Positions 2,031 through 40,670 of a stretch of 64,000 nucleotides of DNA are shown one piece after another; position 1 is the stretch's first letter, and every line of letters begins with the position of its first letter. The notes beneath the pieces were generated by a model that saw only the letters and a list, made by a program, of their open reading frames with translations, made no database searches and was not told where the DNA came from. Made by a program: the position numbers and the translations under genes. Source of the DNA: Raillietiella orientalis (lineage: Eukaryota); NCBI GenBank assembly GCA_036172245.1, contig JAYWIR010000033.1, forward strand, positions 1,302,001-1,366,000. The letters are read 5' to 3'.

Positions 2031-2034
2031 GATG

Positions 2035-3270
2035 GTCACACAGGGACCTTTATTTGATGAATAAAAACAAACAAGTGGTTGGCACAGTTCTAAAAACAAA
2101 ATCGGAAAAATGAAGTCCAGAGAGAGGGTTCAGCGACAAGCAGGTTGGGTTCTGAGGAAGTCCGGAATGTGAGGAAATGGAACAATAAATAAAGGGAAAG
2201 GGATCTTCGGCAGTGGACACTCCCACTGGCTCATTACCGGCGCTGAATGCCGGCGACCTCTGACTCGACTTCTTCCTGCAGGTGAGGCCACCTCCCAGCA
2301 GTCCTCGTGTTAGCGCCTCCCAGGCGGGGGTGACCTCCCTTCCCTGCGCCCCAGACTCTTGCACACGACAGGATGTGGAGTCCGCGCGGATGCAGCACTT
2401 CGTTGGAATCATGGCGCCTTCTGACTCCGCCTCTCGAGAAGAATCTCCGCAGAAACCTCTTGGAGGCGTCATCTGAAAGCAGGAGACCTGAAGGCAACCA
2501 CCGACACAGTCGGCGCCTCAGCCCAGTAATCGGTGAAGAAACGATCCAACGTTCCCGTCCCTGGAGGAGTGCGGTGAGGCTACTGTGTGACGCTGGTTGC
2601 ACTGGAAACCCGAGCGCGGGAACGGCAGCACATCCCCAAGGGAAACACCGGAGTGCTCGTACGCAAAAGGGGGATCGCAGGTTTCTCGGGAGGCACACTC
2701 GAGAGTTCTCCCCACCGAAGAAGTCGCTTTGCCCGGTATCGAGGAGTGACGGTGCATCCACCAGCTCGCTTATTTTCCGTCCATTCACGGGTCGGTCTGG
2801 TCATCGACCTCTAGATCCCCACTAGAAATCCCGAGGCGAGTCTTATACTCATATTGGCTCGTGAAGTAATTTCTCCCGTAGCTTTGCCCCAGTGTTTCTT
2901 CAATAGCTTCTTCAATAGCGGATGTAGATCTCCAGCCACTCGAATCGGAGTTGCCTCTCCATCGCATGTACGATGAGAACACCAAATTGGGAATCTCTCT
3001 TGGAGACACAAATATCTTTGAGGTGGACCTGCTGCCTCAATGCATCCCATCTGGTTTTTCTTAGGAAATGATGAGCAGGACGTCTTGCCTCTGCGGAAGG
3101 GACGCAAACAAAAAGTGGAGGAAAGAGGAGAAGGCGGCATAGGTATTCCGGATAAAGGCCTACTCCGGAGGCAGTTTCTACCGGTAGGAGTGTCAGCTTT
3201 ACCTTCATCTTCCTGAGACGATCGGATCGAGCTTCGAGTGCATGAAAGTCCCTAAGTGGAACACCCAATT
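2035..3270 (-). mobile_element. Decayed LINE, ORF2 post-RT region, degenerate C-terminus and 3' UTR
   Basis: ORF 2912-3268 reads GVPL...HHFLRKTRW...VHLKDICVSKRDSQFGV...FEWL, matching YLGxP / FLW / VxWxxICxPKxxGGLG. KRLLRWGEL lies near 2700-2730. The 3' UTR ends with AATAAA at about 2048-2053 on the minus strand. Confidence 0.75.
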
Positions 3271-6095: not shown

Positions 6096-6129
6096 TGGGC
6101 TCGCAGCCGGACTCATGTTCGTAGGTCCA

Positions 6130-6899: not shown

Positions 6900-9400
6900 G
6901 CAGAATTCCCATTACTTGCTGTTGCATTATGAGAAAGTCTCATTTATCCCATGGAATCCTGGAAATTCGAAAGGGACACAAATCACTTGCAGAATGAGCA
7001 GAGAGTCTTCTTGCATTTGAAAGAGTCGTGTGTGTGTATTGAAGACTTTTGGAAGTTCCTCCTTGTTTCTAGCTAGGGGTCTTTGAAAACCGATGGCGAG
7101 TGAGTGCACATCGTTCCGTTTGCCCACAAGCATCCTCTAAATCGAAGGTACTGGCCATTTTTTCTCATTTTCCCTCTCTCTCTCTCTCTCGAGGAATCGT
7201 GATCGCGGGATCAACGCACGCCTCACCAAAAAATCGAAATTTTCGCCAAAGTTCCTTGGCAAAGAATTTCCCTCCCACAACTTCGGAATCGAAGCATCCG
7301 TTACTATCCAGCTTCTGTTGCACGGAACGGTGGCACACGTTCCACGCGAACATCATCATCCGAAAGCATGCACGCTCGGACTTGGAAATCGCGAGAGGCA
7401 GATTCGTTTCCTGGGAAACGGAGCGGAGGAGCGGGCTGTTCCGCGCAACCTCCAGAATTATTGAAATTACCGCCAGGGGATGATGGCAAGGGAAAACTCC
7501 CAACAGGATGTTGACTTTCTGCAAGAAGCGTGGCAGCTGCTTCCGACAGACTTCGAAAACGGACCGTTTGAAAATTCTGATTCACCGTAAAGGAGAGATG
7601 GTAGAGCAAGAAATCGCAGCGCAATCATCATCCAGACCCTTTGAGAAAGAACCGAAAACTGGTCCTAATGCGTCACGGTGATGAAAGCCAATGCTGAGTC
7701 AGATGCTCGGATGCTAACTAATCAAAAACAGTACGTGTAGCTCCGTTCTTCTCCGACTCCTGCATGATAAATCCCATGTTTCTAACATCGATTTTCATCC
7801 ATAGGAAGCGCAGAAGACATTACTCATCCACCTCTGAAATCTTTACAGGAGCCGAAAATCCAAGCACTCTTCGGGGAAGACCGCTTTCTGTGTTAACACT
7901 TTCTAATCCCATACTCATCTCGGCTAAGAAATAGAATCGAACTTCGAGACTTTGTTTTCCAATCCTCCATATCAGGAACCATTAGATAGGATTCCGGGAT
8001 CCAGGAGACGCAAGAGGCAGGAAGTTTCCCCAGAGCTTACCTGATAAGAGTGAGCTGTCTTGCAGACGTTTTTGATGCGTTGGCTGGCAAGTCAAGAAGA
8101 CTCCCATGCGACAGATTTCTGAAAATTGATTAAATTTCAGAGATGCCAATTCATCTTGTTGCCAAGGAACCGTGTTCCTGGGATTTGAGCTTTACCGTGG
8201 AAACAACAGTGAGAGGTTTTGACACCTTTCGAGACACTTCAGCAAAGGAGAGGGCATCTTGAAGGAAACACCTGACCTCGCTCGCGTGCAGCTGCGACAA
8301 CACCTTTTGCCATCCAACATCGTTTTCTCTAAGTGCATAGAGACTGCGTACAGTTCCTCAGATTCATATCATAATAAAGCATCTTCTCCTAATTCCGTGG
8401 CTATTAGTTGACGAGTACACGGATGAGTTTCGCGTGCACACGTGCCCAGGGAGCTAGAGAGCTCTCTTGAGCTCCTAGCAACCAGAGGCAGGGAGAAGGC
8501 AAGAAGTTCCCTCCACCCCACAGGAAACTCCCTCTTCGCAAATTCGTGAACCAAACATCTCACATCGTGAAAGACACTGCTCACCAGTACACAGTCATTC
8601 CGTACATTGTGCGTTCAGATGTTTCGTGTCCAGGTGGAATCGTATCCATCCACGGTGGCGTTGCTGGACACAAAAGTGAGTTATGCAGGCATGCGTTTTC
8701 AAAGTCCTCTCAGCTTCTTAGTTTCGTTGCTGAGGAAACACAGGAACAGCATTATGTCTATCCAAGTGACCTACTTTCCTTTCTTCTTCATCCCGTACTG
8801 AAGTCGGAGGCTGATCTTCTGAACGGAGGATCAGAGAAAGTGCAATCTCAGCAAGGCGTTTCGTCGTTTTAGAGGAGGATCCGGATGCAGCAGGTGTTCA
8901 AGAGATGTTTTTTTTTTTTGGTGTGTGTGTGTGTTCTTGCTTTTTTCAGGATGCAGCTCTGTCGAACAGATTTTAATCCCGCGTTTCCGATTTGCAGCTT
9001 CCATTTCTGAGGTCGGAACACGCTTGCTGGTTTGGGTCGTGGGAAGCTGAAAGCTGGACCTCTGGAGACTCGACTGTGTGGGTCTTGCTCGGAGGTTTTC
9101 TAGATTGCGTCCGGGATCTAGTACTCGTCCAGAGGAGAAGAGTGGTCATCGTGGACGCCACCTGCCCTTTGAGAGCAGGAGGTGCACCTCTCGTTCTGCA
9201 TTGCTCGGGAAAGATGGTCGGTTTCCCTGGAGACCATGGACCACTAGAGCCCTAATAGTTGGTTTGCAGGGTTGTGGGATCTTGAAATGAAGATGTGAGC
9301 TGGATGCTCTACTGCGAGGAGAGGAACAGATTGCAAGGAGGTAATTCTCTAGAGGGAGTCTCATGGCTACCTCTAGCAAAGCCACGACATGCACTGGATC
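6900..9400 (-). mobile_element. Internally deleted, decayed LINE ORF2 (EN remnant, RT C-terminus, zf-RVT remnant)
   Basis: EN-like DPVHVVALLE and SSGRVLD at 8960-9400. TWIDIMLFL (~8750, FADD position). FAWNVCHRSV (zf-RVT lead-in) in ORF 7165-7524. GKRN near 7120. Confidence 0.55.
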
Positions 9401-13950: not shown

Positions 13951-14859
13951 TGTCAGGCACTGCCTTAGGTTTCTCATGCTGCTAAGCTGCCTGCCGTGCG
14001 AAGATTTGTGGCTGCCGATGCTTTTTTCCTTTTTTTTCCCTCTTTTTTTTTCTTTTGGGAAGTGCGAAATTCGCGCTGTTCCAGGAATTGATCGCGAAAC
14101 CCTGCGCATGGTTGCGTGCCTGCATCTCATTACTGCGTCTTGCGGGACCTTCCCAGCAAGTGAAAAAAGTCAAGAAGAATGCTGCTGGAATTTGTGGCTC
14201 CTGAGAGACGCAAGTGATGCGCGCAAGCGATGGCGCATGGCTTTCAAAAAGATGGGATTCCTTTAACGAGGAAACTTCTTTTTTTTTTTCCAATGAGCTA
14301 ACGAACTGTTTTGTGAGTGAGCTTGATGACCTCTTGTCAATGAGATTGATGAGCTGTTTTCAGCGAGATGGATGGCCTTCGTCATTGAGATTGATATTCC
14401 CATAATTGCATACGTCAGCTGCTCTTCGCAGATGCCGTAACGAAAAGTGTGTATGCGTGCGTAAGCTCGTCTTCTCGAATAGGTGTTTGTGAACACACTC
14501 GGAAATACTCGCCGTTTTCACAGTCGGAAGCCCTACAAAACTCTGTAGTCATTCCGCATTCTTCTTGGCTCATCTGTTGGGTAAACCCATCACTGGAGAA
14601 CCATTCCTGACACCTGCTTAGCCGAAAGGGTTGCTTCATCTGCTTGGCTGCCTATTTTGGTCACTCTGAAATTACACTCAGGTGGCAGCACAGGCTGCAG
14701 CTAAATCTGTGACCTCCCTACCTGACTAGTGAAGTGCAAGTGACTATTTATTCATCTACGTATTCATACACTTCCATTACCCATAGTGTGGCTTGGGTGA
14801 GCCTCTCAATTTGAGAAGAGGGTGAGAACGCAGTTCCCATCTTCTATGCTTATTTCCGT

Positions 14860-15471: not shown

Positions 15472-16303
15472 ATGGTTGTTCACCCGGTCACGCCAGGGCG
15501 TTTTTTTATGGACACACAAATAAGCAAACAAATTGGGAACCCAGTTCCCAGGGAAAACGACAAGGAGCGCGCAGGTCGGTCACTCTGCAAGTCCGGAACG
15601 GGAGAGAAAGGAAGTATAAATAAATAAAGGGAAAATGGGGACAGATGTCTTTGGCACTGGATGCTGCTCCCTTCTCAGGACCGGCGCTGAATGCCGGCCA
15701 TCCCCGACTCGACTTCTTACTGCAGGTGAGGCCACCTCCCAGCCGTCCTCGTGTTGGCGCCTCCCAGGCGGGGGTGACCTCCCTTCCCTGCGCTCCAGAC
15801 TCCAGCACACGGCAGGATGTGGCGTCCGCGCGGATGCAGCACTTCGTTGGAATCATGGCGCCTCCTGACTCCGCCTCTCGAGAAGAATCTCCGCAGAAAC
15901 CTCTTGGAGGCGTCATCCGAAAGCAGGAGACCTGAAGGCAACCACCGACACAGTCGGCGCCTCAGCCCAGTAATCGGTGAAGAAAAAAACGATCCAACGT
16001 TCCCGTCCCTGGAGGAGTGCGGTGAGGCTACTGTGTGACGCTGGTTGCACTGGAAACCCGAGCGCGGGAACGGCAGCACATCCCCAAGGGGAACACAGGA
16101 GTGCTCGTACGCAAAAGGGGGATCGCAGGTTTCTCGGGAGGCACACTCGAGAGTTCTCCCCACCGAAGAAGTCGCTTTGCCCGGTATCGAGGAGTGACGG
16201 CTCGTCCACCAGCTCGCTCGTCTTGCAGCCATCCAGCAACCCCTCAGCGGCTCAGGAGAACTCCCATGCCGCTGGTAGCCTGGTCATCTTTAGAGAAGAC
16301 AGT
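15472..16303 (-). mobile_element. LINE-derived 3' unit (~830 bp), copy A
   Basis: Near-identical to 32391-33218. Contains LLRWGEL, RWPHLQ and the structured 3' UTR. The frame is broken. Confidence 0.85.
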
Positions 16304-16319
16304 GCTGCGAATAGAGGTG

Positions 16320-17560
16320 TGATAGTCATTTGGGACCAATTCGTGGAGGACATTGGTGAAGGCGAATGGTGGAGTGGAGCTAGCAGACGGCAAAGTGTCT
16401 TTGAGCTCATTTCCAGGACTGCAGTTCAGTTCTCCACAACCTTCTGCCACCAGACATCCCAGCTCTTGGAGCACCAGGGGCAACCTTCCAGAACTGAAGT
16501 CCAGTTATCTATATAAGTTATCTATATGGGTAGCCATATCCTTGCTTGCTGCACCTGCTGCGTGCTAGCAGCGAGAAAAGTTATTTGCTGCCGCTGCAGA
16601 GCGGAAGGATGAGGTGTGCAGGAGCTCGCCGTGGAAAAGTCCGCAGTTTAACACAGAGCGCCAGCTGCCAAAGGTGCCCTTGGAACTGCCCAAATCTCAC
16701 ACGGTGCTGCAAAGTCTTTCAGGAGAATCCAGGACTTTGAAGCGTTCCAGAGGACTTTCTTCTTGAGGGCTCGCACCTGGACTTTCTTCGAATAGGGAGA
16801 CGGGCAAACAAAAAGCAGGAAGGAAAAGAACTGTAAAAGTACTCCAGATGGTTTCCCATTCCTTCAAGAAGAAGTTACCATCGAGGAACGGGACGGGAGT
16901 CCATTTTGGCCTTCTAAATGTAGCGCGTTTACGCTTCTTGAAGCGCGAAGGTCTCCCAGCTGAGCACCAGCGTGAAGATTGTCGAGGATGCAAAGATCTC
17001 AGTTCCCTTTATTCCATGCGGTCTCTCGGTTCTTTTTACTCAATCAATAAAAAGAACTGCTTTGCATGCGTGCCCGTGCCTTATTGCTCCTTCTTGGTAT
17101 CCCAAGATCTCAATGAGCCCGGGATAATCGCGCGAACTCACGCGCGGATTCCTGGGAGTGAAAGGGAAAGCTGGTTCTCCTCCTTTCGTTCACACAACTC
17201 CTTGCACCCTTGCACAAAAGCTAGTGACCTCCGGAGCTCAGTGCTGCAGGTCAACGGGCATAGGCATGACGCAACGTCAGCAAGGTACCCGGAAGACTCA
17301 TCAGATGAATGGACATCCTAGAATTTCTTGCACAAAGTCCATGCATCAATTCAGGAAGAATTGTAGCATTCTTCACGTAACCATAGAAACGCGAAGGCGC
17401 AGAACGGAATTACCGTTGTGCCTTTGTGAGAAATCAGCGAGAAAGGTTCCTCGATGAAGTCCCTTCCAGCCACCTTCCCAAATGAGGCTGCCATCAGGAG
17501 TTCCGTGTTCCAGGAAGACATCCGGATGCTTCCGTGACGCGAACTCCCGTCCAGAGCCTG
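16320..17560 (-). mobile_element. LINE fragment: EN start, linker and RT N-terminus (internally deleted)
   Basis: IRMSSWNT (~17505-17530, EN start xSWNxRG). PKWTPVPFLDGNFFLKEWETI (ORF 16697-16993, KxPGxDGxxxxFFxxxW). Confidence 0.6.
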
Positions 17561-18499: not shown

Positions 18500-20300
18500 C
18501 GCCCAAGAGGAGCCTTTCTTTCCCCTTTTAGGAAAGTTGCATTGAATTGCGAGCCTCCGAGAGCAAGAAATTCCCGATGCGATCATCGCTGGCACACACT
18601 CCTGAAGCAGCCGCAGCTACGAAGATTGTTTTGCTTTGCCTTTCCCGTTAACTCCGGCCACGCCGGCGAGTTTATTGAACAACAGCAATGAGGTTACAAT
18701 ACGTCGTGGGAGTATTTGTCCTGCAAAGAACGAAGTTTGAGGCTCTGGCCGTCAACTTCAGCGAATGGTTGCCTTGGTGGAGGATGAGAGAAACTCCTGG
18801 ATCTCCTGCCATACGCGAACTCCACCGCCTCACTGCAAGAGTCAGTCTCTCATGGAGAAAGATCCATTGCTCGAGCGAGGTAGAAAGCAACTGCCTCCAA
18901 AGAGGAAGGAAGACACGCTCGACAGCCGCTGCAGAAGATCGTGAGCGCTCCACGCAAGCTGCTGTGGGCATCGCTCATCCCCTCGCTCCAGTGCTGCCCT
19001 CCCTCAAAAACGCAAAAGACAGAGACATTCCGGCAAGATGGGAAGTGTCCAGCCGCACAAAAGGAAGTAAAAAAAACTCTAAGCTCCTGGACAACTCGGC
19101 AGCAAGCGGACGCTGCAGCTCCGAGGGTCCTGCCAAAAGGACTGGAGCGGCTGTGCAGACGCAACGTGTCCAGCTGCGGACCGGAGATCCGGTGAGTGGT
19201 CAAGCTGACCAGGACCAACAACGATATCTTCCTGAGACCCGCGAACGGTAGCTTCTGATGCAGGGAACCATCCGCACGTGGGCCAAGAACAACGGAGCGA
19301 GCCTGGAGATGCGGCAGCAAATGCTACACTCCTTCTAAGACAACCTCTCGCTGCAGGACGTCATCGTTCAGCCCACCACGCGTGCGCGGACGCAAAGAAG
19401 CTCCCTAGCCGCGACACTGCCCTCCCTCAGGGAGCACTTGCTCAATAACCAGTCGGTCAAACGGGAGGTCAGTTGCGAACTAGGTCTCCGGACGAAGGAA
19501 TTAGGTGGGTGGACCACGGACCAGCTCACGGGCGCTTCGATCCCAAGTACCCCATCGAAAGGACTATTGCGCTGGGGTGAGCTGCTGGGAATACCACAGA
19601 AAGATCTCGAGTGGCCCCCAGCGCTGAACAACACCAGTCTTGCCCCCCTGAAGTGTCAAAAGTCGACACTTGCGCTGCTGCATTGGGGTCTCCTGTGCAA
19701 CGTCTGCCGGTCTCACGGGATCCGGGGAGCTGTGGACTACAACTGCTGCAGGTGCGTGGAACGGGAATCCCTCCTGCATCTGCTTGTGGGCTGTGTTGCC
19801 CTCCGACCCCTTGCGTTAACGCAACTTGTAGTTGCGTTACGCAACGGCCCTTGGTGCACCGACGGACAATCACAGGTACGTGATGAAGCGCCTCTTTGTG
19901 CGCGATGCCCTTTCTCCCGGAGCATATCCAGCAGCTCTCTGCTGCTGTCTACACGGGATTGTGGCGGCCTGGAGCTACGCGAGAGGAGGACGGCACGATA
20001 GGGACGCCATCTGCCTCGCCGTGCGCTTCCTGCGGACGGCAGCCAGATGGCTCTACCTGGGGCATACTCGCATAGACTTGCCGGCATCCTGGAAAGGATG
20101 CAGAGGACGCCCATCAGCACCCAGTGATCCCTTCCCTAACCCTCCCAATTTTTTTAGATATATTTTTTTGCTTTATTTTCATTGTGTATGCCCTCTCTCC
20201 GCTGCCGAGGTGAACCTGCTGATCTGCGTGCCGGTCACTCGGCAATTTCCGAGCATTTTCGAACAATTCAGGGCCGATTACTCTACGCATGTATGTTTAC
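18500..20300 (+). mobile_element. Decayed LINE: EN remnant joined to zf-RVT C-terminus and 3' UTR
   Basis: ORF 19438-20001 has SKGLLRWGELLGIP...LLHWGLLCN...YNCCRCVERESLLHLLVGC, a clear CCHC zf-RVT, followed by FLRTAARWLYL and a T-rich UTR. The EN assignment of 18500-18900 is weaker. Confidence 0.8.
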
Positions 20301-20309
20301 TTTTCATCA

Positions 20310-20830
20310 TAAACGTCCGACTTGGTGATAAACCAAAAGGATTCTTACGCTGGGACGAGCTGATCGCGATATCTCCGGAGGAGGCGAAGTGGCCCCCAGA
20401 GTGTTGGGACAGTGGAACACCCTCCCTTGAGCAAGAGTTGGCATTTCTGGCGTTGCGTTATGGAATCCCATGCAAATAGCTCCTCCATCACAGGACACAG
20501 GGGAGTGTGTATGCCAGCTGTGAAAGTTGCGGCGAGAAGGAACTCTTCCCGCACCTATTAGAGGACTGCGGCGCCCTCCGAGCCCTTTGGGATCGACTCT
20601 CGACAATCCAGAAAATCCTGGCAGGCGACCACAGTAACCTTTTCCGGCGCCTCTTCGTGCGTGCCTCCCTGCCACCAGCCGCAGTTCCCTGCTGTGTCCG
20701 CGGGATCGCAATAACCTAGAACGCTACAAAACAAGGCCAGAACAGCAGGGACGCCATCCACTGGGCAGCAATTTTCTTGAAGACCGCCTCTCGATGGCCC
20801 CTCGTCCTGGGGAAAAAGAAATCACAGAAA
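20310..20830 (+). mobile_element. 5'-truncated LINE 3' fragment (zf-RVT unit)
   Basis: KPKGFLRWDEL...YGIPCK*...SCESCGEKELFPHLLEDCGALRALW...FLKTASRWP. Confidence 0.8.
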
Positions 20831-21751: not shown

Positions 21752-21818
21752 AACAAAAAGAAACAAAAAACTTATGAAAAAGCATGTTCGCTGGAAAAGT
21801 TTTTTGTTTCTTTTTGTT
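21752..21818. repeat. Second inverted repeat (22-bp arms) with a near-identical loop
   Basis: aacaaaaagaaacaaaaaactt (21752-21773) and aagttttttgtttctttttgtt (21797-21818) flank atgaaaaagcatgttcgctgga. Confidence 0.95.
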
Positions 21819-21984
21819 CTGTTTTTCCCCATCCCTCGTGTCCCCGACTGGTCCCCGAGAGCAAGTGGGAGCGAACTTTCTTTTTTGTGCGTGTGTTCGT
21901 GGTAGAACTAAGTGCTCTACCCAAATGTACATTAGTTATTGTTATAATAAATCTCCCGGAGAACCTGGGTGAAAAGCTAGGTCG

Positions 21985-22265
21985 CAATCAGCACCGAAGG
22001 CGAGTGGGGTAGCCAGGATGCGTGCTCATGGATGTGCGCATTGCAAACAGTGGGGAAGGCCAACAGAAGAAAAAAAAAGGACGTAAATGAATAAAAAAGT
22101 GTAAATGCTTTATTTTTTTGAGGACCGCTGGGGACCAGGAGAGTGATTGCAGTCTGTTTCCAGGAGCCTATTGCGCCTTTCACTGGGTGCCGGCAGATTC
22201 CTCTTCTATGGGTAGCCAAATGGCGCAACCCTAGACGAGGATTGCCTCAGGAAGCCTCGGGCAGA
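21985..22265 (-). mobile_element. Very short LINE 3' terminal fragment
   Basis: GCAIWLPIEEESAGTQ resembles the family C-terminus (RWPHLQEEVESEVAGIQ) and is followed by a T-rich UTR. Confidence 0.4.
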
Positions 22266-22269
22266 GAAA

Positions 22270-24800
22270 GTTTTCACCCGGTCTCGCCTGGCCGTTTACT
22301 TGATAAAAATAAACTAGTCGGGAACAAAGTTCCCAGACGATGACAAGAAACAAAGGGGAGGTCCACCGGCACGCAGACCGGGTCAACGGAGAGTCTGGAA
22401 CGGGGGAAGGACAAAAGGGCAAAAAAAACAAACAAAATGGGGGGAGGGGACAGGGATTTTTCGTTTCGCCCTTCGTGCACCGAGACGAAAACAAAAAGCA
22501 CCGGAGAATATGGAAAATAAATAAATAAATAAAGGGAAAGAGGTATCAAAGGTCATCGGGTCAGCAATTTCTAACCGTCCATCAACCCGCGGTGGATGCC
22601 AGTGATCTCTTCCTTGGCTTCATCTTCCAGGTGAGGCCACCTTGCAGCTTCCCTGTTGTAGGTTGCTGCCTTTCTGGTGACCACCATTCGCTGGTCGGGC
22701 CCCAGCGATGGCACGGATGCAACATACGGTTGCAATTACTGCAACCGCCGAGAGACCTCTCGGCGCGAGGAATCGTCGCAGCACGTCTCCAGTGGTGCTA
22801 CTAGTCCAAGAGTGCCGTTTCCAGAGTCCGCCACAGTTCTTGGAGGACACTGCAGTATAAAAGGGATCGACTCCACCGACCCACACCTGGCACTGTTCGG
22901 GAATGCAACCCCTCCGGAAACTCGGTGCCGTCGCTCCTTACACTGGAATCTCCAGTGGATGAGGAGCAGTACGGTCTACTTCCAGGCGGGGGGGAATACT
23001 AAACCGTCCAGGCAATAGGGAGGGACCACAAGTTCTTCAGGGACAACACTCACAAGTTCTTCCCACTGAAGGAGTCCTTTCGCCAAAGCACGAGGAGTGG
23101 CAGCATCCTCCAGCTCACGCGTCTTTCAGGCAACGAGGGGTGTTGCATTTCCCTGGATGGTGCAGGAAAACTGCCACCTCGCCTGTTGGCTGCTGTCTTC
23201 TCTTGCCCTGTGGGCAAGCAGAGCTGCGACAGGATGTGACGGCCAGGTTCAAAAGCTCCACCGCGTCCTGCATCCTCACTACCAGGGGCCGTAGCAACAG
23301 ATGTCGTAGGGGGTGAAGATCTTGAGGACACATTCCCTGGAATGCAGCCTAGGATTCAACAACTTCCTGCAGCCAGGCGTGAAAGTTCGTTGGGAGGCAG
23401 GTTATCCACGGATGGGCTTCCACTAGAAAGAGTTGCCTCAGTGAGTAGCCGAACCCCTGCATCCAGTGACGAATGTTCGGCAGCAACGAAAGCAGTCCTT
23501 CCCTGAAGGCGCATCTTCGCAGGATGATGCGTGCAGGAGCACACAACGGGGCAGAGAAGTGCGGATGTGCCTGTCGGCACATCCGTAACCTACGGAGAGC
23601 TCCAGGTCGTCACTATTCCGCGGAGTCAGCAGAAAGAGTCGCGGCCCGCATCTTCGGACTGCATTGCATTCCACAAGAAAATTCGCTGTAGTGTGTCATT
23701 GGGGCTTCGCATCGGTGAGTGGAAGACCGTTCTGCATCGTTCACAAGTTGGCAAGAGAACAACACAGTTCGCAACCAGGTACCGGAAGGGTTCAAATGGC
23801 CAGCACCCGACACAATTCGGAGACACGCTTCTCCTCGTCCAGTGGTGTTGGCGAGTATACAGAAGACTCAGCAGGTGGTACCGATGTCCTCTTCCCCTTC
23901 CTCCCTCTTTATTGTGTATTTTTTGCACGCTTCCCTATACCTTCCCTGCCTTCTGTGGAACCAGCATACGAGTCGATGGTTGCTTCTTTTTCCTCCTTGG
24001 TATCTTCGAACAGTCAAGTGGAATCGACGATCCACGAGTTTACTTTTCCTCCTTTAGAAAAGTAAACGTCTCGGCGTCACCTGACGACGAGCATTGCGTG
24101 GGAGACCCTAGTGCAACATCAGCAGCGCGGTTCCCGACACTTCGCGGGAACTTTGAGAGCGTCACGAGGATCTCCAAAACTTCTAAAGAATTTCCACAAG
24201 GCTATCACTCACCCCTGGACTTTTTCATGGAACGAATGCACTTCGGAGTTCTCACTCTCCCCTGAACATTTGTATGAAGGTTCCTATTTGGTGGACACCG
24301 TGGTCAGGGCGTCCGCGAACTGACGCGAGCATCAGACATCTAAAGTCTTCTCTTCCCTTTTATTTGGTTCCACCCTGACACATCGAAGGGCTTGATTTTT
24401 TCCGTGTAGCTCGAATCGAGAATGCACCCCAAAAAATCGAAGGCTGGTGATCTAGCATCAACGTATTCCGGGGATGGACTGCAAACTCTTCCTGGGTCTG
24501 GGATTTTTGCCCACCTTTACGGATCGTCAGCTGACTCTAAAGAAAGCAAGGCAAAAAGGAGCGCAAAAATCGGCTCCGCATGTCGTTTCTCAGGGACGAA
24601 CCATCTTGGTACGAGTCGTCATCGTGGGAGGGGCTCATGAGATCCGGCAAACGGCAGCGTGATGAGGGAACTCGAGATTCCTAGGAAAGAAGCCGAGCAC
24701 TTGAGGTGGGAAACGGTGGTACTACCGCGTGAGGAAGAGATGTGCTCAAAAGAACTGTAAGCTCGAAGGGAGGAAAGGTTCGTTGCAGTTCCATAGCAGG
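22270..24800 (-). mobile_element. Decayed LINE ORF2 from RT to 3' UTR
   Basis: EFAVHPGIR (~24460-24490, RGxRQG). QFADA (~24305-24325, FADD). 23150-23230 is homologous to 5184-5255 (TAANRRxGSFPA). Structured 3' UTR at 22270-22550. Confidence 0.8.
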
Positions 24801-24804
24801 AAGG

Positions 24805-27800
24805 GTACTCCGGAGCGTTTATTTATAGATTAAATAAACATTTACAATTTCTGTGGATGGACCAGTGGTCCAACCCCTTCCTTTTTGATCTTCCCCCGCA
24901 TCACCGGTTCTCAGAACAGTGAGTTCCACCACGGCAGCAGAGGGAATGAAAAAGAAAAAGAAAAAAAACAAAAGTAAAACAATTTTGGGGGAGGGGTGCG
25001 GAAAGAGATCACTGTCTTCTAGGGTCAGTCCACTGGATCCCTTGGAGGATGCCGGTAAGGTCTTGCTGGATACTGCTGTCCAGGTGGGGCCATCTGATCC
25101 CTATCCGCAGGAAGCAAACTGAGAAGTCGATGGCGTCCCTTTCATTTCTTTCTCGTTCTTTGGCTGCAGTTCACGCCACCAGGATCCCGCGGAGGCAGCA
25201 AAGTGCTGCGAGGACTGCTGCTAGCTGCAGAGCGTCCCGCACAAAGAGGAGTCTCGCAACGTCTCTGGGGTTGCCACCGAGGGTATCACGGGTCGCGGCA
25301 AAGTTTGGAAACTCAAAGGGACCGGAGGGCAACACAGCCCACTAGCAGGTGCGGGAGGGATTCCCGCTCCCCACACCTTTCACAGTTCGGCTCCGCACAC
25401 CCCAGTGTCTACTGATGCCGGTGGGTCTTGCATGCGAGGCCCCAGTGCAGCCGGCTTCTGCCCCTTCAAGGTGAGAGTGAGGGTGTCTATAAGAAGAGGG
25501 GGCCATTGCAGATCTTCCATCGGAAGTTCCAGTAGCTCGCCCCAGTGCAAGAGTCCTCGAGGGGAGGCACTTGGGATCGCAGCGTTCATTAGTTGGCCCG
25601 TCCACTCGCCTGGCCTTTTTTCTCCTACCGGGGATTTCGGCCAGAGGTAGTTCAGCAATTGAGGTATCATGTGGATGTGAATCCTCGATAAAGCAAGGAA
25701 CTCCTCAGCAGAAAGTGGGAAAGGAAAATCAAACTCTATTCTTCCCGTTCGCAAGGACAAGAAAACGAAGATAACGCGAGAGAGAAAGAGAAACAAATAC
25801 CACGGATGTGTCCTTTCAGGAACGCGGCGCACTCACCCACGAAATGAAGGAGGATGCATGCAATCGCTCCTGTCTTAAAAGCAGCGGGATCAAAGAATCC
25901 TGATTTGCTTTCCAGACTCGGACTACGCCAATCTTTTGAAAGGACTGGTACATCCGTGAGCACTCTGCAGAGCACCGTTCGAGGTGTCAGACTTCTGCAG
26001 GATCGAAAGGCTTTATCAGTCTCAGTCCATGAAACGGACCAACGACACACCTTTTGAAAGGCTCCATCCTTCCAGTGTGTTTTCCGGGGTGTGTCCTTAC
26101 TTCTACTGCTGCTAATCTGTACTCTTAAAATCGGTCTCTTGACAGATGAAATCCAGACATGTGCTCCGCAAAGTGCTTTCCTTCTCGTGGATGCTTCCAG
26201 AGGGCAGCTCACACGCCGTGTGTTCCTGGGAAAGCTCGAAGTTTGGGATGAACTCATCCTGGAGAGCAGTTTCGATCCTGTGAAACCACGTACTCAGAAG
26301 GGAATGATCGGCACTGATGCCTGTGGTCGAAGGAACCAAAGAAGTGTCTGACCACGGTCAGAGGAACCAAAGCAACACTAGCAATGCGCCCTCGTCGGCA
26401 GCCGTGTGGCTGCGATCTTCGAGCGTGGCGGGTTCGAGTCCCCCCCCTCACATGGAGTACCTGCACCGAGGGATGTATGAGAGCTCCCCTAACCGCAGGA
26501 CTACGCCGATCGGCCTCGTAGTCTCCGGGTGTGGAACTCATGGAATCCGGATGACCCCGTCGACTGGACGGGATTGGAAAGCTGACCCTCCAGAGTCCCT
26601 CCAGGAACCAAGGAGAGCCGATTCCCCTGCTCCAAATAAAGCCATTCTTTCCCTAGGGGTGAACCCTACGTCGTATTCCGAGGAGCTGGTTGGTACTGCC
26701 CTTAGGGAGTTTCCTATCCAGAGTGTGAAGAAGCGCGCTGCTCCCTTTATGGGAGCGTCCCTCAGAGAAATTGGGAAGCATCCCTTCGAAATTCTGTTCA
26801 GAGGAGTAACAAGAACGATTCTCTTCCCTCTGGAGAAGAAATTCAGAAGAGGATCCCTTCCAGGATTCCTTCGGAAAGAAAATGAGGAACGATCCCTACC
26901 GGGAGGTCCCTCCGGAGAGAATAAGGAAGAGATTTTGTTCGTAGTTCCCTTTTGGAGACAACCAGGATGAGGGTTCCTTTCGGGATTCTCTAACAAGCGT
27001 AGGAGGAACAAATTCCTTCCACCGGAGCCTATCTGGATCCTCGGGTGATCCCTTCGGGGTTATCTCCTAGTCTGAAGAGTTGAACGCATCTTCGGGTGGA
27101 GTGGACACGTGTTGAAAAACTTCGTTGGTTCCCCCCTAAAGACGCGGAAGGTTCTTCAGCACTCCCTCGGAATCAAACAGAAAAAAAAAATTCCAACGGA
27201 ATGGCGGAGATGAAGAAAATGAGTGAAGCAGGAAGTGCGGACCACGGAACGTTTGTCCTTAAAGAAAAACAAAAAAATAGGTGTGTGTGTTGTGATCTTC
27301 GGGAAAGTCCTTCAGAGTTTTGGCGAACTCCCAGGTGCGAGGGAACTCCAGGCTGAGGACCACCTTTGACGAAGTCATCATCAGTTGCCGATTCGCAGAT
27401 TCCCCCTTGATCGAGGCACTTCGGTGGCATCTCTTCTCCTCCACCACCTTGAATTAGAGGAGGGTGCGCTGAAAGAGGCAAAACCGTGGCGGTGGAACAA
27501 GCGGCAAGAAGCAGACTTGTGGGTCCACGAACCGAATGCAAGCTAAGTAGCTGCCCATCTTTTCTTATGATTTGATTTTCATGGTTTCGGAGTTTGACTC
27601 ATGATGGGACGGATGCTTTCAATATATGCAGCCCACGAACACTCCACATCTTTTTCCTGATGCGCACCTCCTGTCTTTTAAGAATCTGCAATTACTTCAG
27701 CAATTCATCATTTCCCGAATCCTGAAATCCCAGCCATCCTGCTGCAGGTTTCTCTTGGAGCAGAGAACATCTCTCTGGAAGAGCAGTGGGAAAGCCGTTC

Positions 27801-28300
27801 TTGATGCTAACTTCTCGTTTTGGCTCTTCTGGTGCCGTTTTCAAGTACTAAGAGAAAAACGTGACGTTCAGTGGAACTTGACTACCCTTCCTTTACCCTG
27901 AGGCCATTGGATTCGACTACAGCTTGGACCGCGAATAGTCTGGTTGCTGGCTGCCAGCCTCCAGGATTTCCAAGTAGTTGTTCTTGATCCGTCTCTCCGG
28001 CTCGCTTGTGTGTCACCGTACTCGTGCCCCGGTCGGAAAGTTAGGATACCAGTGATGTGGTAGGAGGATGTGGTCTGGTGATTCTTCCGGTCTTCAGCAC
28101 AGATGATCACTTCCTGCTTAGTGCACGATGCCCACACAGGCACAGGGCTGACTTGATCCATGAACCTACAGTCTGCCGAAGGCATTTGCCACCCTTGCAT
28201 AGAAAATGTCCCGAGGTCCGACTCTCTCTCAAGATCTTAGTGAGTTGGTGGTGCCTACTCTTTCATCACGGCATGCTGTGGGATGAATCTTGCAGGGCAC
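24805..28300 (-). mobile_element. Internally deleted LINE: ORF1, EN C-terminus/linker, zf-RVT and 3' UTR
   Basis: SPVPVW (~28130-28150, DUF4283-like). SADHSLL (ORF 26112-26339). PRGLLHWGELLELP and PNCERCGERESLPHLLVGC (~25330-25570). IRWPHL. AATAAA plus cgctccggagtacc at ~24805-24825. Confidence 0.75.
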
Positions 28301-28835
28301 TCGGCCACTCTGGAGCGTTTTATTTGAAAGGAATAAACAAGTAGGGAACGTGGTTCCCAAAGCAAACACAAAAAAAGTTGGTCGACACTCATGTCTATTT
28401 CTGGAGCATCCTGTAGCGAGAGGAAAGGATACAATAAATAAATAAAGGGAGGGTACGAATAGGGTATTTCACATTAGGCGCTTAATGCTGACTATCTCCG
28501 ACTCGACTGCTTCTTGTAAGCGACTTGTTTCTTCTTCCGACTCCCAGCGGCCTCATGTAGGCGGCTGCCATGCTGGGATGACCTCCCTTCGCTACGCTCC
28601 AAACTCCAGCACATGGCGGGATGCGACGAGGGCTGCCGAGAGTGACCCTCGCGGCAAGTTCTTGGTGGTGTCATTCGGAAGCAGGAGCCCTCAAGGCAGC
28701 CTCTCTGCCACAGTCTGTGGAAGGTACCATAGTTCAATAATAGGTGAGAGAGAGATTCAACGGTTCCGCCCCTGGAAGAGCTCGGTGAGACCACTTTACC
28801 GGAAACGAGGCGCCGACGCTGAAGATCCCAGTGCA
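28300..28835 (-). mobile_element. Older diverged copy of the LINE 3' unit
   Basis: Aligns by eye with 2250-2600 (e.g. gatgacctcccttcgctacgctccaaactccagcaca). Retains the GGGAAC-cac-GTTCCC hairpin and AATAAA. Confidence 0.75.
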
Positions 28836-32390: not shown

Positions 32391-33218
32391 ATGGTTGTTC
32401 ACCCGGTCACGCCAGGGCGTTTTTTTATGGGCACACAAATAAGCAAACAAATTGGGAACCCAGTTCCCAGGGGAAACGACAAGGAGCTCGCAGGTCGGTC
32501 ACTCTGCAAGTCCGGAACGGGAGAGAAAGGAAGTATAAATAAATAAAGGAAAAATGGGGACAGATGTCTTTGGCACTGGGTGCTGCTCCCTTCTCAGGAC
32601 CGGCGCTGAATGCCGGCCATCTCCGACTCGACTTCTTACTGCAGGTGAGGCCACCTCCCAGCCGTCCTCGTGTTGGCGCCTCCCAGGCGGGGGTGACCTC
32701 CCTTCCCTGCGCTCCAGACTCCAGCACACGGCAGGATGTGGCGTCCGCGCGGATGCAGCACTTCGTTGGAATCATGGCGCCTCCTGACTCCGCCTCTCGA
32801 GAAGAATCTCCGCAGAAACCTCTTGGAGGCGTCATCCGAAAGCAGGAGACCTGAAGGCAACCACCGACACAGTCGGCGCCTCAGCCCAGTAATCGGTGAA
32901 GAAACGATCCAACGTTCCCGTCCCTGGAGGAGTGCGGTGAGGCTACTGTGTGACGCTGGTTGCACTGGAAACCCGAGCGCGGGAACGGCAGCACATCCCC
33001 AAGGGGAACACAGGAGTGCTCGTACGCAAAAGGGGGATCGCAGGTTTCTCGGGAGGCACACTCGAGAGTTCTCCCCACCGAAGAAGTCGCTTTGCCCGGT
33101 ATCGAGGAGTGACGGCTCGTCCACCAGCTCGCTCGTCTTGCAGCAGTCCAGCAACCCCTCAGCGGCTCAGGAGAACTCCCATGCCGCTGGTAGCCTGGTC
33201 ATCTTTAGAGAAGACAGT
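32391..33218 (-). mobile_element. LINE-derived 3' unit (~830 bp), copy B
   Basis: Near-identical to 15472-16303, with roughly ten differences seen by eye, including a 4-bp A-run indel. Confidence 0.85.
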
Positions 33219-33239
33219 ACCGCGGAAAGAGGTGTGGTC

Positions 33240-35230
33240 ACCAGGCGGTCATTTGATTTTCCACTTATGCGATGCTACAAACGTCGTCGAACCCTGGAGG
33301 ACATCTCCGAGCTGAGTTGAGAAGGCTCTCGCAGGCGACCGAAAATGTGGTGAATTTACCTGGCGTCAGAGGTTCAACCTCATGTGTGTCCCATCCTTGT
33401 CTAGGGGAGCGCTAACCTTCGCTTCTGTTAGCGTTGGCTGGTTGCCCGAGTCTCATGAAAACAAGGTAAGTTCCTGTCCGAGGTGTCTGAATTCTGTGCT
33501 AGTGCTGCATAGGCCATTTGGCTGCTGGTGGAAATTAGCAGTTCGCTCTTCCATGTGAGCGAAGTCAGAGGCAGAAAATCTGAGTATCTTCCAAGAGTTG
33601 ATAGCGCAAGAGAAGAGACAAGGTTGGGAACAGTCCCCGCATGTGTGTCTTCCATTTCTATTCTTACCGCACCCAGATTCCTTAATTTTGCCTTGATGAA
33701 CACACCTTTAAGATGGAAGGAGGAGTCATCAGCTCTTCGATTCCCCTGGCCTCTCATCAAGATCAAAACGCATGTGCGATCCCAGTAGATCATCCGAGGG
33801 AAGAAAGCTGATGGCTGGATTCAGTAGTCGCCACATGTCTTCGGACGTCAGACTAAAGAGAACGCTTGACATGCTTCCTGAGGGATACGTTCCTCGGGAA
33901 GATACAAATTGCAGAGGTTGTCAGACACAGTGCTCGAAATTCAAAACAAGACACGCGTTTCTTAGTGGGTTCGTAATTGCGTGTTCAAAGACTCCATTTC
34001 CAAGATCGCCTTTGCGCTTCCTTAATAATTCAGTAAGGATTCTCTTCCTTTTTTCTTCGCTCGTAAGCTCGGGGATCGGAGATATCATCTGAAATTGCTT
34101 GCGGCGCTTAAGCTGAGGGCGCGTAAGGGAAAAACTCTTTGTCGTGAGCAAGTTAAGAGGTCACCGCTAAGCTCGGCCACCGCGTGGAGATACCGACCAC
34201 TCCGTGGTGCAGACAGTAGCACGAAAATGTGCTGCTGTGACTCCGGTGTTCTTGGCTATCCGAAGCAGAAAGCTGCTTTTGCCGTTGGTTATGTTCCCCA
34301 GTTCTAAATGAAGGTGATTTACGACCACCTGTAGCCATCAGAGGATGTGACTGATTTCCGCCCCAGAAGACATCTGCTGCTTATCTGTCAAGAGATGTAC
34401 CGCATCTTACCTTACAGCTCGCAATTGATGACGATGACCCTTTCTAAAAGAGGAAAAAGAACTTGGAACGCCTCTAATGTCCACTCCAATGAGACGTTAG
34501 AATCGAAAATCCCCGCAGGTTTCCAGAAAGCCGCAGGGCTCCACCAACGCACCTCAGCACTACGCACCGTTCAACGCAAGAGCGCGTGGACATCTCGCGG
34601 GTCGAAGGAAGACCACGTCCAGCGCTGGGCACCCAGAGGTTTTCACCCCCACCTCTGACGAATTTTTAATAGTAGAACGTTGGCAAGTGGGTCTCAGAAC
34701 ACCAGCGTCGGGCATTTGGAAGATAGAGCTTTTTCATCTGTTTTCAACCTCACGAATAAATCATTCCCTGATGCTTTCACGTGGTAATGAACTCTTGACG
34801 ATTCTTTAGCCTGATGTTCTGTGAAATGCGACTTGATGATGGCCCTTGATGAGAAATCACTTTCAATCAAATGCTTATTAATGATGCTTCCCTGTCGCTT
34901 CTTCTGGTGTTCCTCTTCAATCAAACACGGAACACTTCCATTCTCCTGAGTGGATGCGACCGGACGCGTTTCTTCGCATTCCCTGCCTCCTGTCCAGATG
35001 GAACGTGGACCAGGAAAAACAACCGCTTTCTCTCCGAAGGTCCGATCGCCTGAGCTGCGAAATGAAATCGCGGCTCGGAGCTGAAATTCGTGGTGCACTC
35101 GTGTTCCGGGGACTGTGTTGACACGGCAAATTAACTATGCTGCGAAGACGAGCCCGTCTGACATGAGCTCCACGTCAGTCATTTCGCTGTCCCATAAATT
35201 ATAGATGCTGCAGACTCTCCACAGAGTAAG
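33240..35230 (-). mobile_element. Decayed LINE RT and post-RT region
   Basis: TVPGTRVHHEF (~35085-35120, KxPGxDGxxxEF). SSGAEISH (~34350-34375, SGxxIN). RKRKGDLGNG (ORF 33921-34151, PKxxGGLG). Confidence 0.55.
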
Positions 35231-38054: not shown

Positions 38055-38390
38055 ACCAGCAGATATAGCATGCCTGGTCCGCCATCCCGAAGGAACCTTA
38101 AGATAAAGATTGCAGCACTTTGGCTCCACATTAGACTGCCTGAGAGAGGTTGGAACAGAACTACCACTGCACAGCCCAAAGCCAAAGACCCCTGTCCCCT
38201 CTCCCCCTCCCATATTTTTATTTTTCATATTTTTGTTTCTAGTTCCCTCCCTCTCGTTCCGGACTTTCGGCTTTACCGACCTGCGTGTCGGAGAGCCCTC
38301 CCTTCCATCTTCTGTACCCTTTGTCTGGGAACTTCGTTCCCAGATAGTTTTTAAGTAAACGCCTCGGAGCACCCGGATGGAAAGCAGAAG
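38055..38390 (+). mobile_element. Short LINE 3' terminal fragment with complete structured 3' UTR
   Basis: KIAALWLHI matches the family C-terminus. The UTR aligns with those at 15472-15660 and 22270-22460 (TTCCGGAC...CCGACCTGC...GGGAAC-ttc-GTTCCC...TAAACGCC...CCGGATG). Confidence 0.75.
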
Positions 38391-39849
38391 TGCACAGCCG
38401 TGATCGTTCCAGCATGATGCTCCCCCTTTGGATCCCATGACCTCCCCCCATTTCACCTGTCATGGACCTTCAGCCACCAGCTGCAAAAAGGGAGGAGGGG
38501 TCTCCGAAAAGACTGCCACGAGGGCAGTGCAGGGCGCCACGACTGCGCTGCTTTGAAAATGGGGCATCATCAGCGTATGATCTCGCCAACGAGAGAGAGG
38601 GGGGGAGAGAAATCCCATGTGTTATGTAGCTGATGGTTTTTTTGGAAACTCCGAAAAATTTTTACCATATTTGCGTAATTGCTTATGATAATAAGATAAA
38701 ATACATGGCGTGCTGTTTTCCATTCCGATTATGTGGTTGAGATTGTGCGATGCTCCAAGATGCAGTTTTATCAATAACTTCGAGATGCTCGAATCCATGG
38801 AGTCTTCCAGCGACATTCGTGTGATTGAGTGCACGCGATGAAATTTTAATTGCAAGGAGCTGCAATTAAAATTTCCTCGCATCAGTTCCAGGGGAGCCTT
38901 CTTCCGTTTCCAGCAGGTGGCTGAAAGTGCATGACGAGTGGAACTGAGGCCTCGGAATTCGGTTCAAAAAGCAGCGTGTCAAAGCGATCACAGCTGTGCA
39001 CTTCGGCACATTTTTCAACTTCGTGTTCCTCCACCTTGCAAGAGCACAAGACTTCGAGGCGACGGAAGCTGATGCTGCAGATGTGCACCTCGAGGCTGGA
39101 AGATTCGCAGACGCGCGTTTGAAGAAAAGAGTCAAGAGAACGAAGCGTGAAGCTGCTTCGGGACGAGGTTTTCCAGGCGGGGAGCAAGGCTCGAGGGGCA
39201 CACGCGGAAACAAACCGGGATGACCCCACACGATGGTGAGCCAACGGCACGGTCACGGGTCGGCGAGCTGCCTGACCAACACAACTCTGTTGCTTCTGCA
39301 AGAAAAAAAAAAGAAAAGGGAAAAAAACGGGCCGGTGGAAACTCACCCTTCTCTCAACCACGCGTGTTCAACGTGTGGTTCCTTCCAAGGACGCGAGAAG
39401 TGGACCCACGCAGCGCATGCTTTCCGGTAAGAGCGTCTGCCTCAGCTGCAGGTCTTCCTTGCCGGATGGAATCCAAGATGGATGAAACGTTCCTCCTTTC
39501 GCAGGAAGTGGAGGAGAGGTTCATCAGGAAGCGGAGTATCCGCGTGCACGAGCGATGCTGCGGCGGAACAGAAGATCAACCTTTGAGCAGCCGGCGGCGG
39601 AAGCGAAACAGAGTGCGCTGCTTTACCCTCACCGGAGTCCTCCCTTCCTCAGCAGCGGATTCCCCATGTGTCGGAAGCCATTTTGAGGCAAAGCAAGTTT
39701 TAATGGGGCTCACACGAAGGTGGGAAAGGATTTCCTTTTTTCGCGTTTGCGTGCCCGCACGGAAATTTCCGCGCTCCCCAGGCAGTGAAACCAAAACTCC
39801 ATAAAGGGATTGGGCGTGCGCATGCAAATCCTCACCACACGGATCTTCG

Positions 39850-40594: not shown

Positions 40595-40670
<76 letters not shown>
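40595..40670. repeat. (GT)38 microsatellite
   Basis: An uninterrupted GT run, preceded by an AC-rich run and followed by gcgtgtgcgcgcgtgc. Confidence 0.97.

Follow-up and report, generated by a model that had tools for sequence, protein, structure and literature searches.

Hairpins near the 3' end are known recognition signals of long interspersed nuclear elements (LINEs) that lack poly(A). One report (PMC4176376) describes zebrafish L2-clade LINEs in which the ORF2 protein binds a 3' stem-loop, with a conserved region of the protein reading the stem and a variable region reading the loop, giving cognate specificity; in the L2-clade cases covered there, stems are exchangeable between elements and the loop is the strict determinant. 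The same report assigns the insect site-specific LINEs R2 and SART1 to the stringent type, whose reverse transcriptase (RT) needs its own 3' untranslated region (UTR) RNA for target-primed reverse transcription (PMC4176376). The structure of the hairpin of the eel element UnaL2 has been solved (PMC1636434), and the 3' hairpin of CR1, which an 8-bp microsatellite (ATTCTRTG) follows, is taken to be the RT recognition site (PMC8665684). Here we describe a hairpin with the invariant stem GGGAAC/GUUCCC and a free 3-nt loop, hereafter HP1, that recurs in the 3' tails of a family of decayed repeats in Raillietiella orientalis and that might, tentatively, serve the same kind of recognition. The window analyzed is a 64-kb stretch (64,000 nt, positions 1,302,001 to 1,366,000 of contig JAYWIR010000033.1, assembly GCA_036172245.1), and all positions below are counted from its first letter.

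The palindromic motif GGGAACNNNGTTCCC matched exactly at five places in the window (15535, 22320, 28344, 32454 and 38327), compared to an expectation of 0.01, and none of 100 dinucleotide shuffles contained five or more matches. We took as sense the strand on which the upstream open reading frame (ORF) remnants lie together with an AATAAA-like motif. Read in this way, the loops are UGG at 15535 and 32454 (both minus), UUU at 22320 (minus), CAC at 28344 (minus) and UUC at 38327 (plus), and the claim of an earlier reading made from the letters of the window (the sequence-only reading) that five hairpins share one stem while the loop varies was borne out. All five exact copies belong to one repeat family and occupy a common position in its non-coding tail. 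The five tails had also been counted as separate cases; five copies do exist, but the regions 15472-16321 and 32391-33236 are 98.1% identical over 850 bp, and therefore the five copies represent four independent lineages (A, B, C and D). The stem length of 6-9 bp given earlier agrees with the folds of A, B and C and is slightly short for D. With two mismatches allowed the motif matched ten times against 3.3 expected, and the copy at 14824 carries a single mismatch. A perfect palindrome at 8165-8179, AGGAAC-CGT-GTTCCT, has its outer pair altered on both sides and a context unlike the tails, and it is probably due to chance in view of the 3.3 two-mismatch matches expected.

We aligned the last ~200 nt of lineages A, B, C and D with MAFFT L-INS-i, which gave 239 columns. 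Fifty-nine columns were invariant and 13 of these fell in the stem and the T before it, compared to an invariance of ~21% (46/223) in the remaining columns. Pairwise identity outside the 15-nt hairpin was 46-61%, in agreement with the earlier description of the flanking UTR as much more diverged than the stem; all 13 of the 13 T-plus-stem bases were identical in the four lineages. Invariant runs of at least 4 bases were limited to TGGGAAC, GTTCCC, GTTT and AAACG, which make up two complementary pairs: the first pair, the longest runs, are the arms of HP1, and the second are the bases of an adjoining hairpin, HP2. Variation is seen at all three loop positions and also in the flanks, over 10 nt on the 5' side of the stem and 5 nt on the 3' side. 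By our own arithmetic, drift would be very unlikely to leave 12 specific stem columns invariant (order of 1e-8 per site set), with the caveat that lineages A-D were picked up through the motif itself.

The predicted folds point in the same direction. HP1 was part of the minimum-energy fold in each of A, B, C and D, and when the 40 nt upstream of HP2 were compared with 500 mononucleotide shuffles in ten lineages, the segment folded better than the shuffles at p<0.05 in five of them (B, C, D, H and E; Table 1). On the sequences at hand, the case for selection is thus one of conserved complementary blocks and hairpin stability, not of covariation.

In lineage A, HP1 covers positions 126-140 of the 203-nt UTR, leaving 63 nt to the 3' terminus. 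It is followed by HP2, a possible third hairpin (HP3) and then ~10 nt of terminal sequence; HP2 and HP3 adjoin HP1 in the same tail and had been overlooked by the sequence-only reading. HP2 is an A/U-rich hairpin of the form GUUU...AAAC that begins 5 nt after HP1 and holds an AAUAAA/AAGUAAA motif in its 3' arm in all lineages. In B, G and H the two arms pair perfectly over 8-10 bp. It was more stable than shuffles in only four of the ten lineages (B, E, G and H), a result favored by the choice of HP2 segments according to their complementary ends, and was weak or absent in the other six. The GUUU/AAAC bases are kept in eight of the ten lineages and lost in A3 and F, a distribution wider than that of HP1, although not universal. 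HP3 is a possible hairpin of the form CCYGG-N5-CCRGG (CCUGG-CGUGA-CCGGG in lineage A), with 68-71% of its cells paired and with one-sided changes only.

Copies A1 and A2 stop at one base, ...AACAACCAT (...CCAT), and continue into unrelated DNA without an A run. The lack of a polyadenylate (poly(A)) tail applies to A1 and A2, the sole lineage with an end defined by two copies; no A run follows the other tails. The element end lies ~25-35 nt past the AAUAAA-like motif, without an A tail. Upstream of HP1, at a distance of 40-61 nt, sits a further conserved block, CGTTCCGGACT, with ACCGACCTGCG ~10 nt on. GUUCC occurs both in this block and in the 3' arm of HP1, and the one in the block could instead pair with the 5' arm (GGAAC) of HP1, which would give an alternative fold.

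Table 1. Tails, hairpins and conserved block of the repeat family in the window. Tails were located with a tail profile and a covariance model; hairpin sequences are written as sense-strand RNA unless marked DNA; fold values refer to the 40-nt segment upstream of HP2.
Feature	Lineage or copy	Positions	Strand	Sequence or remark	Fold
Tail	A1	15472-15650	-		
3' UTR + tail	A1	15472-15674	-	203 nt; ends ...GGGTGAACAACCAT, no poly(A)	
Tail	A2	32391-32569	-		
Tail	A3	2006-2200	-		p 0.85
Tail, longer span	A3	2006-2240	-	ORF end 94% identical to A, tail 54%; without HP1	
Tail	B	22254-22452	-		
Tail	C	28280-28464	-		
Tail	D	38208-38397	+		
Tail	E	5883-6108	+		
Tail	F	21804-21985	+		
Tail	G	23901-24095	+		
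Tail	H	24799-24889	-		
Tail	I	20258-20336	+	without HP1-like hairpin	p 0.95
HP1 (focal)	D	38323-38345	+	GUCUGGGAAC-UUC-GUUCCCAGAU	11 bp; -15.4 kcal/mol; 0/500 shuffles as stable
HP1	A1	15534-15550	-	UGGGAAC-UGG-GUUCCCA	7 bp; -9.3 kcal/mol; p 0.07
HP1	A2	32453-32469	-	98% identical to copy 1, non-independent	
HP1	B	22317-22338	-	GUC(U)GGGAAC-UUU-GUUCCCGAC	6 bp + 3 bp across 1-nt bulge; -11.3 kcal/mol; p 0.008
HP1	C	28344-28358	-	GGGAAC-CAC-GUUCCC	6 bp; -7.9 kcal/mol; p 0.014
HP1, decayed extra copy	K	14824-14838	+	GAGAAC-GCA-GUUCCC, one mismatch; covariance model, marginal, E 0.91	
HP1 variant	H	24858-24872	-	UGGACC-ACU-GGUCCA; DNA GGACCACTGGTCC at 24859-24871	p 0.008
HP1 variant	F	21901-21921	+	GGUAGAAC-UAAGU-GCUCUACC; DNA GGTAGAAC-TAAGT-GCTCTACC	p 0.09 (0.088)
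HP1 variant	G	24018-24035	+	GUGGA-N8-UCCAC; 2 nt upstream of HP2	p 0.17, not significant
Different hairpin at HP1 position	E	6014-6032	+	GAGGGG-N7-CCCCUC-like	p 0.004
HP2	A	15500-15529	-		
HP2	B	22294-22314	-		
HP2	C	28317-28338	-		
HP2	D	38347-38360	+		
HP2	E	6046-6070	+		
HP2	G	24038-24067	+		
HP2	H	24817-24839	-		
HP3	A	15483-15497	-		
HP3	B	22277-22291	-		
HP3	D	38364-38376	+		
HP3	F	21955-21969	+		
HP3	G	24071-24084	+		
Block CGTTCCGGACT	A1	15590-15600	-		
Block CGTTCCGGACT	A2	32509-32519	-		
Block CGTTCCGGACT	A3	2159-2169	-		
Block CGTTCCGGACT	B	22392-22402	-		
Block CGTTCCGGACT	D	38255-38265	+		

An nhmmer tail profile together with a covariance model recovered 11 tails in 10 lineages. 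Pairwise tail identities computed with cheap gaps were uninformative and were left out of the lineage grouping. The exact hairpin is present in four of the ten lineages (five of the 11 copies), another hairpin stands at about the same place in four, and two (A3 and I) have none; a hairpin at the HP1 place is common in the family and not universal. The H variant keeps the triloop, has C-G in place of one A-U pair and a stem shorter by one G-C pair, and the F variant keeps the inner GAAC and differs in three outer pairs on both sides. The sequence-only reading had listed different hairpins at the equivalent position, at 21901-21921 and ~24859-24870. Both hairpins exist in tails found by the profile, but the equivalence of position is only approximate, with a distance to HP2 of 13 nt for the F variant and 19 nt for the H variant, compared to 5 nt for the GGGAAC copies.

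Copy A3 is informative in another way. Comparison of A1 with A3 (15472-16230 and 2006-2800, both minus) gave 94% identity (519/550 columns) before the stop codon and 54% (132/246) from the stop on, and we placed the ORF/UTR boundary at this break. The A3 frame is open over 188 codons to the stop (ORF 2234-2800). It looks as though lineages have traded the entire 3' UTR, with the break exactly where the ORF ends.

The repeats are probably LINEs, an assignment that is reasonable from their shared 3' ends, 5' truncation, lack of poly(A) and a weak zf-RVT-like knuckle. Copy A2 is cut 846 bp upstream of its end, A1 continues and weakly resembles B further up, and D extends over only ~230 bp; there are no terminal repeats, and shared 3' ends with varied 5' ends are as expected of 5'-truncated retrotransposed copies. 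A peptide motif of the LLRWGEL type was found six times on the same strand: five matches lie 695-772 nt upstream of the tail end in A1, A2, A3, H and I, and for the sixth, at 20342 (plus), no tail was found downstream. A CxxC-x7-H-x4-C knuckle was present three times, and in H and I it lies ~450-600 nt upstream of the tail end. The best Pfam zf-RVT match of a knuckle is sub-threshold (E 0.067, with 14.3 bits where the cut-off is 27.5), and a protein-atlas cluster with zf-RVT on 29% of its members is a weak lead only. We recognized by eye no target-site duplication at A1 and A2, whose 5' ends are uncertain, and within the 64-kb window there was neither a tRNA-like head nor a recognizable short SINE-like element with this tail.

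Relatives of the family were sought at the levels of RNA, DNA and protein. The Rfam library includes the R2 element family. A comparison with Rfam had been suggested by the sequence-only reading, and no curated family matches the tails: the whole window gave no match at gathering scores, and the four matches with E<=1 in 1500-39000 all lie off the tails. The pattern CGTTCCGGACT-N6-12-ACCGACCTGCG, which does not depend on the hairpin, was found in none of the stretches of the metagenome, prokaryote-genome and viral collections. A pattern based on the hairpin returned 117 metagenome stretches, which we rejected as relatives: none of the 117 has the upstream block GTTCC[GA]GACT, and the tail profile matches the motif alone. 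Forty-nine of them represent three unrelated repeat families. Among the metagenome loci (L006, L013, L016, L022 and others), 23 of the 117 have GGGAAC-N3-GTTCCC followed by a second hairpin, GTTTCC..GGAAAC, 19 have a GGGAACGGCGTTCCCCTTC.GTTTT form and seven a third form; they are otherwise unlike the window tails. A HMMER search against 1.84 billion representatives gave as its sole match a 17-residue repeat without a Pfam family, which was rejected as a relative, and an atlas search with ORF 2237-2800 gave no usable match. A full-text literature search on the motif in a retrotransposon setting returned nothing relevant, and the literature on coccidian LINEs offered nothing that could be linked to the window. 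The dinoflagellate spliced-leader motif had no match with up to three mismatches.

With these results in hand, HP1 could well be a stem-loop of a stringent-type LINE 3' tail that is bound by the element's own ORF2 protein, a proposal that we put forward tentatively. On this view the palindrome in the DNA reflects a stem-loop formed in the RNA, located in the 3'-terminal domain of decayed elements that lack poly(A) and are truncated at the 5' end. In the transcript HP1 would be a protein-binding handle, most likely for the ORF2 protein that starts target-primed reverse transcription. Both the shape and the base identity of the invariant stem would be recognized, and the free triloop would either be irrelevant or differ between subfamilies to label the cognate RNA. 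Lacking poly(A), a retrotransposon of this kind would depend on some specific signal at its 3' end. The sequence-only reading had proposed a cis-recognition element, and the position of HP1, its size, its conservation and the absence of poly(A) do fit the published model; a strict requirement for HP1 does not fit, given its presence in four of ten lineages and the tail swap in A3.

Several observations weigh against this proposal. The first is the distribution just mentioned, with the exact hairpin in only four lineages and none at its place in A3 and I. The near-identical coding lineage A3 spread at least once under a tail without HP1, and the hairpin would therefore not be strictly required, although A3 could alternatively be a dead-on-arrival chimera. 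The exact stem is invariant and hence without covariation, which argues that base identity matters, and invariant arms around a spacer of fixed length (3 nt) and free sequence are equally typical of DNA sites bound by dimeric proteins. Whole tails of ~100 nt fold unremarkably in A, B and C (z -0.26, -1.04 and -0.44), with only D at -2.88. RNAalifold on six tails predicted HP1 as the sole structure, with an unfavorable covariation term (+1.86). In a sequence-only alignment of the ten lineages, 72.8% of the cells of the three-hairpin structure were paired, dropping to 35-50% when the partners were slid by 1-3 columns, but 100 of 500 shuffles matched the paired percentage and 134 of 500 the covariation score, which is not significant. 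A model-fitted alignment, which takes in two marginal partial matches and has the variant hairpins of H, F and G out of register, raised the paired cells to 76.7%; 15 of 500 shuffles matched this percentage and 35 of 500 the covariation score, again not significant, since in the pair-test tool's own trials unconstrained alignments attain such levels 5-25% of the time. The wobble cells of HP3, seven G-U and six A-C, give no strand-specific support. A structural alignment with a covariation test had been suggested for 3' ends collected genome-wide; on the tails of the window such tests failed to separate the tails from shuffles. The fixed stem and free loop behind the earlier idea of selection on RNA structure stand, with no significant covariation beside them.

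Pfam searches found no RT or endonuclease in any of the 140 window ORFs of at least 120 aa, in the 122 ORFs near the elements out of 566 with 55-119 aa, or in the 3 kb upstream of A1 with stops read as X. The earlier description of the tails as LINE 3' UTRs therefore holds for the shared 3' ends, the 5' truncation and the lack of poly(A), but not for an RT or endonuclease domain in the ORFs scanned. All copies seen are short 3' fragments, and the absence of these domains in 64 kb says little on the family. Word-index searches for protein relatives with ORF 19339-19998 (against longer proteins) and ORF 15720-16283 found none. Finally, all of the evidence comes from one 64-kb window with ten lineages.

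Among the alternatives, the one that survives best keeps the RNA hairpin and gives it another job, such as 3'-end formation without polyadenylation (with HP2 hiding the AAUAAA-like motif), RNA stability or export, or packaging by a host protein or another element protein. What conservation and folding show supports this as well as it supports recognition by the ORF2 protein, the placement of AAUAAA/AAGUAAA in the 3' arm of HP2 with an element end ~25-35 nt later and no A tail would suit it, and the loss of HP1 from A3 and I better suits an accessory function than an initiation signal. We nevertheless consider it unlikely: HP2 is thermodynamically weak in six of the ten lineages, and the tail hairpins of poly(A)-less LINEs whose tests are reported in the passages of PMC4176376 serve ORF2 or RT binding.

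A second alternative is that the selected object is the double-stranded DNA palindrome itself, as the site of a dimeric host or element protein, for example in transcription control or termination. Its half-sites are invariant and its 3-bp spacer is fixed in length and free in sequence while the lineages differ at 39-54% of flanking positions, the exact motif shows no compensatory change, and the wobble pairs show no strand preference. To our knowledge the palindrome is not the site of any known factor. A fixed DNA-binding protein leaves unexplained why H, F, G and E can still form a hairpin from different sequences. Pairing in B and D runs past the 6-bp core with different flanking bases. The site is also located within 80 nt of the end of a transcript-derived element, beside two further hairpins, and we regard selection on the DNA form as improbable. 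We hold in similarly low regard the suggestion that the hairpin has no function, the 15-mer having been inherited from an ancestral tail or spread by tail exchange and having survived through luck and the selection of exact matches. Tail modules do move, as the A/A3 break at the stop codon indicates, the copies were found by exact match, the covariation tests were not significant and the sample is small. Recent module exchange, however, would have kept the flanks and the loop as well, and these differ while 13/13 T-plus-stem bases are identical; 12 invariant columns against a background of ~21% would be very unlikely by drift, and the next longest invariant runs again form a complementary pair.

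The typical Helitron 3' end has a hairpin ~10 nt before a CTRR terminus. That the repeats are some non-LINE element with terminal hairpins, for example a Helitron-like one, is very improbable: the missing RT and endonuclease in the scanned ORFs, the hairpins near a conserved terminus and the lack of poly(A) and of a target-site duplication recognized by eye would agree with it, but the A copies end in ...CCAT and not CTRR, the shared region of at least 850 bp has differing upstream ends as 5' truncation gives, and the same strand has, at a fixed distance upstream, a CCHC knuckle (the weak zf-RVT match) and a conserved peptide motif.

Some further features of the window deserve mention. A sequence resembling U6/U6atac at 33342-33438 (minus) scored 31.5 bits against an Rfam gathering threshold of 33 (E 3.4e-4 on 37.5 kb). 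A good match in the core GAAGGUUAGCGCUCCCCUAGACAAGGAUGG is combined with a degenerate 5' box and a UUUU end, and no TATA-like box was seen upstream by eye. It lies ~105 nt upstream of the 5'-truncated copy A2 in the same orientation, and could be a small nuclear RNA (snRNA) pseudogene or an snRNA-LINE chimera formed by template switching. An 87-nt inverted repeat (21554-21640/21664-21750, 95% complementary, 23-nt spacer) is directly followed by a perfect 22-nt inverted repeat (21752-21773/21797-21818, also with a 23-nt spacer) just upstream of tail F, and the two are the source of three weak Rfam matches resembling microRNA precursors (E 0.016-0.95, far below gathering). Tails F (21955-21985, plus) and B (22254-22291, minus) stand tail to tail ~270 bp apart, and with six tails in both orientations the region 19.3-25.6 kb is a nest of insertions. 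The window also contains a (GT)38 microsatellite at 40595-40670, has a GC content of ~51%, and is strongly depleted in TpA (observed/expected 0.48) and mildly in CpG (0.85). An ORF weakly resembling ribonucleotide reductase had no significant match among solved structures (E 0.06).

The described systems closest to the present family include UnaL2, ZfL2-1 and ZfL2-2, which likewise have a short stem-loop in the last 60-80 nt and no poly(A), and the two-part model of L2 recognition fits the constant stem and lineage-specific loops seen here. The present tails differ from those of L2 elements in that the stem is invariant and the loop free, whereas there the stem is exchangeable and the loop strict; the usual pattern of specific loops and covarying stems is inverted here. 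A more elaborate version of ORF2 recognition, which we find quite doubtful, would have the GGGAAC/GUUCCC stem read by a conserved part of ORF2 and the triloop (UGG, UUU, CAC, UUC or ACU) act as a subfamily barcode for cis-preference, with tail swaps at the stop codon serving to escape or capture recognition. The zf-RVT domain is more usual in L1-like elements, and if the zf-RVT hint is right, the barcode would belong to an L1-like lineage working in a stringent, poly(A)-independent way.

The end of the tail sets the family apart as well. L2-clade tails end in short tandem repeats, and in contrast to the L2 and CR1 tails, the present tails have no terminal tandem repeat: lineage A ends in ...GGGTGAACAACCAT, and none follows the other tails. 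In place of the microsatellite that follows the CR1 hairpin, the tails described here carry another two hairpins and a unique sequence at the end, and no sequence similarity to CR1 was seen. R2 and SART1 are site-specific, whereas the present copies, judged from 64 kb, are dispersed, and they have no Rfam match. An invariant stem with a free loop, up to three adjacent hairpins, one of them enclosing an AAUAAA-like motif, and a tail exchanged at the stop codon would, given the full genome, make the family a test case for the co-evolution of tail and protein, and the tail would provide a reliable 3' anchor for annotating these repeats. Recognition through tail hairpins is well established for LINEs that lack poly(A), and the present finding adds a family rather than a new principle.

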